Made by a program: the position numbers and the translations under genes. Below the pieces are notes generated by a model that searched no databases, had not been told where the DNA came from, and saw nothing but the letters and a program-made list of their open reading frames with translations. From an uncultured Gammaproteobacteria bacterium (GTDB lineage Bacteria; Patescibacteriota; Patescibacteriia; Magasanikbacterales; JBBTQS01), in assembly GCA_964627525.1 (NCBI GenBank), contig CAZVIA010000001.1:8007-72006 (forward strand): DNA of 64,000 bases. Direction: 5' to 3'. Shown in pieces: positions 1 through 3,504 of this stretch. Each line of letters starts with the position of its first letter. Position 1 is the stretch's first letter.

Positions 1-1514
1 CAAATTGTAATTATGATGTGTGTGAAGATGGTTGTGAGTATGAAGGTGCTTGTCCAGCACGTTGTATCCCACATGAACATGATGATGATCACCCTACTAC
101 TAATCAACCATATACATATGCCCCAGAAGACTGTGGGGGTGGTTGGAATTGGAATAGTGATACAGAGTCATGTGTTCGTCCAGGTGTAAATTGTTCAAGT
201 TATAGTAGTGTTTGTGGTGCTTGTCCACAAGGTGATATGAATGATAGTTATTGGTGTGAATATGATGGAGATGGTTGTCCAATGGCTTGTAGAGAAGTAG
301 GACAATGTGATAATGATGGGTATTGTGATCCAGGAGAAAGTTATGAAGATTGTTCATCAGATTGCGGAACATATTCTGGAGGACAGTGTGATCATGATGG
401 ATACTGTGACACAGGTGAGACTCCGTCAGATTGTCCAGATTGTTCAAGTTATACAAGTAGTTGTAATAATAATGGTACTTGTGAAGATGGTGAAACTTTT
501 GAAGGTTGTGGATCAGATTGTTCAGGAAGTTGTGATAATGATGGGTCATGTGATCCAGGCGAAGATATGGGAAATTGTGGATATGATTGTGGTGGTTCAT
601 GTGATAATGATGGAACTTGTGAATCAGGTGAAGATAGTATGAATTGTGGTCATGATTGTGACTCAATGTATGGTACAGGAGGTAGTTGTGATTACAATGG
701 AGTATGTGAATCAGATGAGAATAGTTCAAGTTGTCCAGAAGACTGTAATGTTGTAGATTCTGGTGCAGCATATGATGATGTTACATTGCATGGGGCAACA
801 ATAACAGACAGTGGTCTACAGATTAGTTATTCTAAGAACTTTAGTACTTGTGCCCACTTATTATTCTCCAGCTTTGGAATGGCAACATCATATAATTATT
901 ATTGCACAATGGGTGACTCAATTGTGGTTACACAGCCTTTGGATCAATTTTCAGTAAGTGCTGGAGATTCAATAATGTTGTGCCATGGAAATAATTATGG
1001 AGTGTGTAGTGGTACTGCTGCTATAACTGATTCAAGAAGTAGTGTGTCTAGTTCGGATGATAGTGATAATACTAGTCAAGGAGAATCTTGTGGCTCAACA
1101 ACTTGCGGATTATCAACTGATTGGTGTGCAGACTCTTCAAGAAGTATGTGTTGTCCAACAGGTACCTCAGTGTTGTGTGATAGTGGTGCGTGTACAAATA
1201 GCCTGTCTGATTGTGGTGATCATTATGATGACGAATACCACGACGATGATTTTGATTACTACCATGATGATGGTGGTGCACCATGTGGTACAGGAAATAC
1301 TTGTGCTCAAGGTGACTGGTGTGCTGATGTATCAAATGGATGGTGTTGTCCAGCTTATGCAGAACATATTTGTGATGATGGTCGTTGTGTAGAAAATTAT
1401 TCTGAATGTGATTCACAAAGCTATAATGACACAGGTTTTTGGAAAAGACTTGGAATTAAATGGGACAGCTTTATTTCTAAGTTGCTAGGAGTTTCAAGAG
1501 CATCTAGGTACTAA
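1..1514 (+). CDS. Cys-rich repeat protein (CDNDG-x-CD-x-GE modules), probably secreted or surface; 5' partial, frame open to window start
   Basis: Frame from nt 3 is open to the window edge. At least 8 tandem ~25-aa modules with invariant Cys spacing; Asn/Asp/Ser rich. A hairpin terminator follows the stop. Confidence 0.6.
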   Translation, partial: NCNYDVCEDGCEYEGACPARCIPHEHDDDHPTTNQPYTYAPEDCGGGWNWNSDTESCVRPGVNCSSYSSVCGACPQGDMNDSYWCEYDGDGCPMACREVGQCDNDGYCDPGESYEDCSSDCGTYSGGQCDHDGYCDTGETPSDCPDCSSYTSSCNNNGTCEDGETFEGCGSDCSGSCDNDGSCDPGEDMGNCGYDCGGSCDNDGTCESGEDSMNCGHDCDSMYGTGGSCDYNGVCESDENSSSCPEDCNVVDSGAAYDDVTLHGATITDSGLQISYSKNFSTCAHLLFSSFGMATSYNYYCTMGDSIVVTQPLDQFSVSAGDSIMLCHGNNYGVCSGTAAITDSRSSVSSSDDSDNTSQGESCGSTTCGLSTDWCADSSRSMCCPTGTSVLCDSGACTNSLSDCGDHYDDEYHDDDFDYYHDDGGAPCGTGNTCAQGDWCADVSNGWCCPAYAEHICDDGRCVENYSECDSQSYNDTGFWKRLGIKWDSFISKLLGVSRASRY

Positions 1515-2101: not shown

Positions 2102-2122
2102 TTTTGTTAAAATTTTTTAAAA

Positions 2123-2157
2123 AGCCCAACCACTCCGAGTGGTCGGGCTTTTTTGTA
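2123..2157 (+). terminator. Rho-independent terminator after ndk
   Basis: agcccaacc/ggtcgggct stem followed by tttttt. Confidence 0.6.
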
Positions 2158-2180
2158 TCAAACCAAGCTCGTGCTATACT
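2153..2180 (+). promoter_or_regulatory. sigma70-like promoter (TTGTAT-N16-TGC-TATACT)
   Basis: Extended -10 (gtgcTATACT) with a weaker -35; sits directly upstream of a GC-rich structured stretch. Confidence 0.4.
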
Positions 2181-2336
2181 GAAATTGACCCTCTAGAGCG
2201 GATCTATGATATTCCTCTACAACCTTATCCCTAGAGTTTGTCGGGATCGCTATCACTGTGGTGAAAAGCACTGACGAACCACCTATTTAGCGGGGGTAAG
2301 TCGTAGATCCGCAACAGAGTGGTTTTTTGTTTTTTA
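2181..2336 (+). ncRNA. Candidate structured small RNA (~150 nt), identity unknown
   Basis: GC-rich ORF-free stretch between a promoter and a T-run. Long-range pairing gcggatcta (about 2203) with tagatccgc (about 2310); internal hairpins; ends ...gagtggtttttt. Confidence 0.35.
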
Positions 2337-2492: not shown

Positions 2493-3212
2493 ATGAAGTA
2501 TACTATCGGACAAACAGCAAAAATATTGGGTGTAACTGCACAAACTTTAAGGAGGTGGGAGGCTTCTGGTTTGTTAATGTCACATCGTTCAAAAGGAGGG
2601 CATAGATATTATGAAGAAGACGAAATTAGGGAATATTGCAATAGTCTTGATATTTTTAAATTGGCTTTTAATTGGACATTATCAGATACTGGTGAAAATA
2701 TATTAAAACACTTTTATTGTTCTGATTCATCAGTGTTTAAAGCAAGACTTGGCAAAATGTTAACAGAGTTACAAAAAGATTTGAGTGTTAGAAATTTAGC
2801 ATCATTAATTACAGCATCTGCAGGTGAGATAGGTAATAATTCCTTTGATCATAATTTGGGGAATTGGCCTGATAAAGCTGGAATTTTTTTTGGTTATCAT
2901 ACAAAAAAAAGACAAATTGTGTTAGCAGATCGTGGTCAAGGGGTTTTAACAACATTAAGTAGGGTAAGACCTGAATTGAAAATAGAAAAAGATGCTTTAA
3001 AGGTTGCTTTTACTGAATTTGTTACTGGTAGAGCTCCTCAACATAGGGGTAATGGTCTAAAGTGGGTTAAAAAAAATGTCTGTGATTATGATCTAGACTT
3101 GGTTTTTCAGTCAGGAAATGCCCGTTTAAAGATTGGGGGTGGTAATGAGGAATTAAAAATAAAGGAAGTAAAGAATAAAATACAAGGATGTTTATCCTTT
3201 ATTAATTATTGA
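2493..3212 (+). CDS. MerR-type HTH fused to a GHKL (histidine-kinase/anti-sigma-like) ATPase domain
   Basis: N-terminal TIGQTAKILGVTAQTLRRWE (MerR HTH). C-terminal N-box (GEIGNNSFDHN), G1 (LADRGQG) and G2 (RGNGL) boxes. Confidence 0.55.
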   Translation: MKYTIGQTAKILGVTAQTLRRWEASGLLMSHRSKGGHRYYEEDEIREYCNSLDIFKLAFNWTLSDTGENILKHFYCSDSSVFKARLGKMLTELQKDLSVRNLASLITASAGEIGNNSFDHNLGNWPDKAGIFFGYHTKKRQIVLADRGQGVLTTLSRVRPELKIEKDALKVAFTEFVTGRAPQHRGNGLKWVKKNVCDYDLDLVFQSGNARLKIGGGNEELKIKEVKNKIQGCLSFINY

Positions 3213-3213
3213 T

Positions 3214-3504
3214 ATGAAAATTGAATTAAAAAAATTTGGAAACATATTGATTTCTAGGCAATCTGGTCGTGAAGCATATAATGCATTTAAGCCAACAATG
3301 CAAAATATTGGTGAATCAGAAGAGGTTGTTTTGGATTTTGTGGGAGTTGATGTCTTGTCTCCTTCGTGGGCAGATGAATTTATAACTATTTTAGTAAAAG
3401 ATTTTTCAAATAATATTATAGTTAAAAAAACTGATAATTTGTCAGTGATTGAAACTTTGGATTTATTGCAGAAAATAAATAATTATATTTTAGAAATTAA
3501 GTAA
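3214..3504 (+). CDS. Small STAS-like (anti-sigma-antagonist-like, DUF4325-like) protein
   Basis: 96 aa, starts 1 nt after the GHKL gene. Size and profile fit STAS partner-switch proteins; tentative. Confidence 0.4.
   Translation: MKIELKKFGNILISRQSGREAYNAFKPTMQNIGESEEVVLDFVGVDVLSPSWADEFITILVKDFSNNIIVKKTDNLSVIETLDLLQKINNYILEIK

Follow-up and report, generated by a model that had tools for sequence, protein, structure and literature searches.

A probable compact, divergent 6S-type RNA gene downstream of ndk in a Magasanikbacteria-related bacterium

What is encoded by the GC-rich spacer that follows the ndk gene at this locus? The question is raised by a stretch of 64,000 nucleotides (nt) of contig CAZVIA010000001.1, which was analysed at its full length and is called the window here. 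A preliminary description, made from the letters alone, had proposed a candidate non-coding RNA (ncRNA) in this spacer, bounded by a promoter and a terminator. Read from the sequence, segment 2187-2324 of the plus strand is a structured RNA gene, organized like a transcription unit with its own -10 box and terminator. This status is based on the conservation, the covariation and the conserved promoter found in 28 homologues. 6S RNA is a regulator of RNA polymerase and a mimic of an open promoter. Our comparative analysis indicates that the element is probably the gene for a compact, divergent RNA of this type (ssrS-like), a putative RNA polymerase decoy in a Magasanikbacteria-related bacterium of the candidate phyla radiation (CPR).

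The transcription unit and its upstream border can be outlined by three features.

2119-2153, plus strand: intrinsic terminator of ndk, with a T-run behind an inverted repeat of 17 nt (94% complementary).
2153-2180, plus strand: promoter read from the sequence, with a weak -35-like TTGTAT (2153-2158), a 16-nt spacer and an extended -10 element TGcTATACT (2172-2180).
2187-2324, plus strand: predicted compact 6S-like transcript of ~138 nt, based on covariance-model matches, the fold z-score and the G:U strand bias.

The upstream gene is ndk (1616-2101; Pfam NDK, E = 1.3e-47). Given this gene's separate terminator, the RNA is more than an ndk 3' untranslated region. All elements listed in the preliminary description were found where it had placed them, including the extended -10 promoter: the conserved 5' end of the RNA (G2187/A2188) is situated 7-8 nt past this box. 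For the 3' end, a position within the U-run 2323-2328 is probable. The end that had been described as a stem plus T-run corresponds to the outer stem 2187-2194/2316-2324, which continues into T6-G-T6. This RNA 3' end went unflagged in a generic terminator scan, as the entire closing stem, and not a short hairpin, serves as the terminator stem. The candidate ncRNA thus stands, but with a size of ~138-140 nt instead of ~150 nt. A palindrome (ctctagag) that had also been pointed out is present, but it is incidental, being part of the outer stem.

The segment has no coding potential, and the only open reading frames (ORFs) overlapping it, at most 37 amino acids (aa) long, agree with its description as ORF-free. 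Its GC content, correctly described as high, is 0.479, a level reached by only 5.4% of 140-nt windows; the window as a whole has 0.362 and the next spacer 0.205. The plus strand folds with a minimum free energy (MFE) of -52.8 kcal/mol (z = -4.46), and 0 of 200 shuffled sequences were equally stable. The fold of the minus strand is weaker (z = -3.75), and the frequent G:U pairs in the helices assign the RNA to the plus strand. No second copy of the element was found in the 64-kb window at up to 3 mismatches.

Homologues were sought via Ndk in species-representative genome assemblies (metagenome-assembled genomes, MAGs), and in metagenome contigs; loci recovered for comparison carry L-numbers. 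The Ndk-based scan of the species-representative genomes yielded 80 loci, all from CPR MAGs, labelled Magasanikbacteria, Peregrinibacteria, Peribacteria or Gracilibacteria, with several evidently mislabelled 'Gammaproteobacteria'. By nhmmer, the element was located directly 3' of ndk in five of these 80 loci. A covariance model built from the six closest copies (R1) detected 17 loci among the 80, the more distant ones lying 1-3 kb downstream of ndk. From 24 copies, a second model (R2) was made, which detected 18 of the 80 ndk loci and no others. The informatively titled records among these 18 are Magasanikbacteria or Patescibacteria, and none belongs to the Peregrinibacteria, Peribacteria or Gracilibacteria. 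On the window itself, R1 matches 2184-2326 with 127.8 bits and R2 matches 2184-2324 with 101.2 bits.

A degenerate pattern of the invariant blocks retrieved 25 metagenome contigs, 14 of which were confirmed by model. The other 11 look like chance occurrences: they match neither R1 nor R2, and the five that were checked in Rfam gave no 6S match. Altogether, MAGs and metagenome contigs provide 28 distinct homologues, all of them single copy and the majority situated close behind ndk. Eight metagenome contigs have an identical Ndk and a 100% identical spacer, and therefore contribute no comparative information. The position beside ndk is kept across species in which ndk is only 70-81% identical. 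At L011:6672-6814, the RNA gene and its -10 box are inverted in place, on the minus strand relative to ndk, and converge on ndk. The records of L011, L013, L014, L015, L016, L018, L024 and L029 are titled 'uncultured Gammaproteobacteria'. These titles look like mislabelling, because Ndk is 75-81% identical to that of Magasanikbacteria/Patescibacteria MAGs and the synteny and the RNA are held in common with them.

The promoter is conserved together with the RNA. A TATA(A/C/G/T)T box occurs at one shared position of the flank alignment in 31/31 copies. It could be located by position in 26 of the 28 homologues, 35-48 nt upstream of the motif UCUACAA and ~7-9 nt before the conserved 5' end GAYCCU, and it travels with the gene in the inverted L011 copy. 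In the alignment of the nearest relatives, this box is kept, the single-stranded blocks are invariant and the stems are variable. The block CCACCU is invariant in 25 aligned homologues and GGG almost so (the window has GAG); the two L065/L069-type copies, which are outside this 25-sequence alignment, read CCACUU. In 15 of the 17 first-found copies, the motifs are separated by 55-58 nt and by 8-11 nt; the other two, of the L065/L069 type, have a longer internal domain.

The variation of the stems is that of a conserved structure. In a MAFFT alignment of six sequences, RNAalifold predicted 34 pairs, 16 of them with compensatory changes. In 29 aligned sequences, 86.9% of the cells form standard pairs (65.3% in shuffles), 30 of the 34 pairs vary on both sides (shuffle mean, 23.9) and the covariation score is 0.534, against at most 0.11 when partners are slid by 1-3 columns; this alignment was fitted to the model, which favours such covariation measures. 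The RNAalifold result on the MAFFT alignment agrees with them in direction. The conservation and covariation in relatives on which the preliminary description had made its candidate depend were thus both found.

A relation to 6S RNA was revealed by the homologues. The Rfam 6S model (RF00013) matches the more AU-rich, distant homologue L013 (6608-6759) over model positions 1-187 with 32.0 bits (E = 3.4e-5), the next family scoring 17.6 bits. It also matches L094 (1610-1750), from another subfamily, with 25.3 bits and with coordinates identical to those of the match to our own model. In both, the 6S consensus blocks GGG and CCCACCU fall on the invariant blocks of the family with high posterior probability, GGG at the start and CCCACCU at the end of the internal stem; the outer CCCU/GGGG stem matches as well. 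R1, built from close relatives only, matches L013 with 29.5 bits and L094 with 30 bits. The window copy is tied to these 6S-positive homologues because of the R1 matches and because they share the ndk synteny (for the copies at ndk loci), the promoter position and the motif spacing.

6S, one of the structured RNAs named as candidates at the outset, is the only Rfam family that any homologue matched among those tested. Signal recognition particle (SRP) RNA, transfer-messenger RNA (tmRNA), RNase P RNA, 5S rRNA and riboswitches are ruled out, with no Rfam match at E<=10 between 2050 and 2500. ARAGORN detected no tmRNA either, in keeping with the earlier failure to recognize SRP, tmRNA or RNase P motifs by eye.

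The predicted architecture of the RNA is composed of the following parts, all on the plus strand.

2187-2194, plus strand: 5' strand GACCCUCU of the outer closing stem P0, pairing with 2316-2324 (U2320 bulged) in the MFE fold.
2198-2209, plus strand: 5' strand GCGGAUCUAUGA of P1, a long-range helix of 12 base pairs (bp) with UCGUAGAUCCGC at 2301-2312.
2210-2223, plus strand: conserved 5' segment UAUUCCUCUACAAC, unpaired in the RNAalifold consensus, with the invariant UCUACAA at 2216-2222 (alignment A5).
2214-2218, plus strand: 5' strand CCUCU of the alternative helix S2, pairing with GGGGG at 2292-2296 only in the open-bubble fold.
2224-2230, plus strand: 5' strand CUUAUCC of the bubble-collapse helix, pairing with GGGUAAG at 2294-2300 and mutually exclusive with S2.
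2234-2280, plus strand: internal stem-loop domain of 47 nt (RNAalifold), in which helices 5-8 covary.
2240-2244/2271-2275 (GUCGG/CUGAC), 2249-2251/2268-2270 (GCU/AGC) and 2253-2256/2261-2264 (UCAC/GUGA), plus strand: helices of the internal domain.
2257-2260, plus strand: loop UGUG of the internal domain.
2279-2293, plus strand: 3' bubble strand with the invariant CCACCU (2279-2284) and a small hairpin formed by CC (2282-2283) and GG (2292-2293).
2294-2312, plus strand: 3' strands of the collapse helix (2294-2300) and of P1 (2301-2312).
2316-2335, plus strand: 3' strand of P0 (2316-2324), continued by T6-G-T6 (2323-2335), the closing stem also serving as intrinsic terminator.

P1 includes, and extends to 12 bp, the 9-bp pairing gcggatcta/tagatccgc (2198-2206/2304-2312) that had been recognized in the preliminary description. 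Every P1 pair (helices 1-3) varies on both sides across the homologues, and so do 7/7 pairs of the collapse helix (helix 4). Its compensatory changes include U:A to G:C between window/L015 and L029/L011, and in the distant subfamily a collapse helix is found in the same place (AGUACUAC/GUAGUAUU). The 3' strands of the collapse helix and P1 are contiguous, so the two helices can stack. The equivalent of P0 in homologues is GAUCCUA/UAGGGUC; distant homologues have a separate terminator hairpin after P0 instead. The internal domain measures 47-50 nt across the homologues measured and is capped by C(YGUG)G. The 3' bubble hairpin has the form CCUA...UAGG in most homologues, directly after CCCA.

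Several further motifs were considered and rejected. A pseudoknot between the conserved 5' AUUCC and a GGGAU of the internal domain is not kept in L015 or in the distant subfamily, and an anti-Shine-Dalgarno role of UUCCUCU does not suit the distant subfamily, which reads UAUUCU. A T-box-like UAC specifier stands without the context of an aminoacyl-tRNA synthetase. The -10-like GAUAUU/UAUACU of the 5' segment, considered as a sigma-binding mimic, is not consistently present.

According to the fold predictions, the centre of the RNA has two mutually exclusive, nearly isoenergetic arrangements. In the open arrangement (fold A), the CCUCU/GGGGG helix forms, and 15 nt of the 5' strand and 11 nt of the 3' strand remain unpaired as a central bubble, which gives the classical 6S shape. 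Its energy in the window, calculated by constrained folding, is -49.7 kcal/mol, 3.1 above the MFE of -52.8 kcal/mol; across homologues, the cost is 1.6-9.8 kcal/mol. The strands of this open bubble measure 13-16 nt (5') and 11-14 nt (3') in 21/21 sequences measured, the Rfam consensus being 16/13. In L013, S2 is AUACUAUUCU/GGAGUAGUAU, and the cmscan alignment of this homologue follows fold A. In the predicted ground state (fold B), the bubble is closed: the 3' strand of S2 is engaged by the distal portion of the 5' bubble strand (CUUAUCC/GGGUAAG), and the 3' bubble strand folds into a small hairpin. The order of elements is then P0, P1, an unpaired 5' segment of 13-17 nt ending in UCUACAA, the 7-10-bp collapse helix, the stem-loop of 47-50 nt and the small hairpin.

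Part of these results weighs against the assignment to 6S RNA. For the whole window, Rfam returns only two tRNAs at gathering thresholds, and a search of 451 nt (2050-2500) at E<=10 gave nothing over the element, 6S included. The scores of L013 and L094 are below the RF00013 gathering threshold of 46.4 bits, and the homologues L020, L069 and L083 have no RF00013 match. With a length of 132-155 nt across homologues, the RNA is shorter than classical 6S (~180-200 nt). The closed bubble is the ground state according to both thermodynamics and covariation, and S2 comprises only 5 bp in the window and has no independent covariation support: its bases are invariant in the close subfamily, so that covariation cannot test it there. 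It is also possible that a canonical 6S gene exists elsewhere in the genomes of this lineage, the DNA analysed consisting of ndk loci and metagenome contigs.

Since the evidence for 6S membership is sub-threshold and incomplete, a lineage-specific structured small RNA (sRNA) other than 6S has to be considered, although we judge it unlikely. It would be a trans-acting regulator with a UCUACAA seed or a protein-binding housekeeping RNA, and the sub-threshold 6S matches would reflect a generic rod-with-bulge shape. Four of six representatives, including the window, are without an Rfam 6S match and the other two are below gathering; R2 has no match to E. coli 6S (ssrS locus, L114). Moreover, the ground state exposes one conserved strand of 13-17 nt, seed- or bulge-like, and no two-sided bubble. 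Against such an RNA, the match of L013 extends from end to end at the E-value given above, with GGG and CCCACCU on the conserved 6S blocks, and a second subfamily matches 6S independently. Published features of 6S-1 recur in the bubble lengths, the 3' hairpin and the collapse helix, and the strict motif spacing points to an architectural rather than a seed-type RNA.

A cis-acting leader appears very improbable. It could be a riboswitch or attenuator of the MerR-type gene downstream, whose start at 2493 lies 157 nt past the terminator-like stem and U-run, or a precursor or leader of tRNA-Pro(GGG), whose gene follows no more than a few hundred nt away in many relatives; moreover, two folds that exclude each other are reminiscent of a switch. 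Most distant relatives, as well as L020, have this tRNA gene ~60 to 400 nt after the RNA; in L067 the distance is ~1 kb.

L013:6876-6950, L018:9950-10024, L009:2508-2582, L016:10669-10743, L020:10914-10988 and others: tRNA-Pro(GGG).

The genes downstream, however, vary among relatives: where the window has a MerR-type gene, L015 has MazG-like ORFs and distant relatives have an ORF of ~300 aa that is presumably TrhO-like. The inverted L011 copy, converging on ndk, is without a downstream gene. The tRNA-Pro(GGG) is absent from this locus in the window; ARAGORN found only two tRNAs in the whole window (Met and Leu, at 35-37 kb), none of them less than 33 kb from the RNA, and distant copies have their own terminator hairpin ahead of the tRNA. 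No riboswitch family of Rfam was matched. The nearby tRNA-Pro(GGG) fits with a cluster of stable-RNA genes.

Hardly credible, finally, is a non-functional or mobile sequence, such as an element resembling a miniature inverted-repeat transposable element or a chance GC-rich palindrome between terminators: the terminal inverted repeats 2191-2209/2301-2319 (79% complementary) resemble one superficially, but the 64 kb contain just one copy, its place beside ndk has been kept between species, and it shows compensatory stem substitutions, invariant loops and a conserved promoter.

If the element is a 6S-type RNA, a mechanism can be proposed from the analogous RNAs E. coli 6S and B. subtilis 6S-1. 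In its open form, the RNA would imitate an open promoter and occupy the active-site cleft of the RNA polymerase holoenzyme with the housekeeping sigma factor, sequestering the enzyme. Once supplied with nucleoside triphosphates, the polymerase would copy the 5' strand into a short product RNA (pRNA), starting in or beside UCUACAA and reading into S2 and P1; segment 2210-2223 is the proposed initiation region. For a start opposite C2220, the pRNA would begin with 5'-GUAGAGGAAUAUCAUAG..., its predicted sequence being 5'-GUAGAGGAAUAUCAUAGAU. The pRNA hybrid would free the 3' strand, which could then pair with the distal 5' bubble strand as in fold B, and this collapse of the bubble would release the polymerase.

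Unlike in the 6S model systems, the collapse helix of the free RNA is predicted to equal or exceed S2 in stability. Either the enzyme captures or opens a minor conformer, or the RNA is gated. A tentative extension, about which we remain doubtful, is that this family represents the smallest natural 6S-type RNA with a collapsed resting state, a gated bistable decoy whose covarying 7-10-bp helix would first be opened by the polymerase or by a cellular condition. In the distant subfamily, the competing 5' segments change in parallel, from AUACUAU/AGUACUAC to AUAUUAU/GAUAUUAC, and in L090 GUAGUAU becomes GUAAUAU. Such a parallel change would fit with selection on both states.

Several further features were noted in the surroundings of the gene. 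Upstream, positions 1-1514 (plus strand) of the window encode the C-terminal 498 aa of a very large protein, which has a full length of 1836 aa on contig Ga0118720_1003647. Cys, Asp and Gly are abundant in it, the unit C-D-N-D-G-x-C-(D/E)-x-G-E is repeated, and Pfam gave no match. Downstream (2493-3504, plus strand), the only Pfam match of a 239-aa protein is an N-terminal MerR-type helix-turn-helix, ~190 residues being without a match. After a gap of one base, it is followed by a 96-aa DUF4325 (STAS-like) protein and then by a MazG-like pyrophosphohydrolase. The MerR-type/DUF4325 pair is missing at the corresponding position in most relatives. In some of them, a 116-aa ORF (MxxYKDLLVYQRxF...) is located directly 3' of ndk (L018:7047-7397, L023:10580-10930 and L069:4832-5182); its product presumably resembles the four-helix-bundle '23S rRNA intervening-sequence / Avd-like' proteins.

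Two conserved blocks were observed in the spacers of distant relatives. The first, of ~330 nt (L013:4676-5031; also in L009, L014, L016, L018 and L023), lies between ndk and the 6S-like RNA in an ORF-poor spacer of 1-2.7 kb; nothing corresponding to it exists in the window. Within this block are a strong TTGACC-N17-TATAGT promoter, a DnaA-box-like TGTGGATAA, a GACCCCA/TGGGGTC terminator with T-run and, possibly, an ORF of ~40 codons (MKQFSHTIITLILNRLSKVNFCFAMV...). It could be a small-protein gene or a further sRNA gene. The second block is non-coding (L013:5921-6111; also in L014, L016 and L018) and consists of a promoter-like TTTACA...TATGAT followed by a long hairpin (GAGTTTCTGTGTGTGTAGAA...TTCTATGTAGACAGAAACTC). 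It is possibly another small RNA, with no match in the window and no Rfam match at gathering.

6S RNA is considered nearly universal in bacteria, and a 6S-type RNA in this lineage is thus unsurprising in kind. New are an RNA family outside the reach of Rfam, its occurrence in a CPR lineage and the combination of a compact size with a collapse helix that covaries and appears to be pre-formed. In the full texts searched, no report of 6S RNA in CPR was found, the sole co-mention of '6S RNA' and 'Patescibacteria' being in unrelated work on mitochondrial SRP; a search for ncRNAs in Peregrinibacteria or CPR returned nothing relevant.

The family model, together with the promoter and the boundaries, would allow the annotation of 6S genes in Magasanikbacteria-like genomes. 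A naturally minimised 6S of ~140 nt would provide a test of which 6S parts are essential and complement the engineered truncations of 6S-1. The bubble-collapse helix has so far been deduced from probing and mutagenesis of the RNA of one or two species, and the present family would be a case backed by covariation. Should the RNA not be 6S, it would still be a conserved, probably abundant structured RNA in very small genomes.

The proposed 6S-type RNA can be compared with three known systems. Ms1 RNA of actinobacteria is ~300 nt long. It shares with our family a 6S-related structure that is missed by 6S models and was found through synteny and structure, but it binds core polymerase rather than the holoenzyme and is described in actinobacteria only (PMC4191392, PMC9130861).

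With E. coli 6S, the family would have in common the arm-bubble-arm logic and the proposed refolding driven by the pRNA, and it has a similar hairpin-forming 3' bubble strand, CACCU...AAGGGU resembling the CCACCU...GGGGGU found here. In contrast to the release proposed here, E. coli 6S frees the polymerase via a 9-bp hairpin within the 3' strand and not via a collapse helix (PMC8876501). A similarity of CGAUAUU to the E. coli 5' bubble strand is regarded as a coincidence, as its structural position differs.

The third comparison is with B. subtilis 6S-1 and Aquifex aeolicus 6S. Both of these have the small 3' bubble hairpin when the RNA is free. After the helix adjacent to the bubble is unwound by pRNA synthesis, its 3' strand pairs with the distal part of the 5' bubble strand into a 'central bubble collapse helix', which promotes the release of the polymerase (PMC8876501). 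The internal domain of our family is shorter than in the Rfam 6S consensus (47-50 against ~70 nt), as is the closing arm (~32 against ~45 nt). The collapse helix differs from the 6S-1 type in having 7-10 covarying bp and in being predicted to be pre-formed in the free RNA, with a bubble-adjacent helix of ~5 bp in the window. A 6S-1 truncated to 78-82 nt is still bound by the polymerase, serves as template for pRNA and is released in vitro (PMC8876501), so length is not strictly required and a natural 6S of ~140 nt is plausible. Like 6S-1 and A. aeolicus 6S, the element is a stand-alone gene with its own promoter and has paired ends as closing arm. Its internal stem is likewise flanked by GGG...CCCACCU, with a possible bubble of ~15/12 nt, and it has both the 3' bubble hairpin and an equivalent of the collapse helix.

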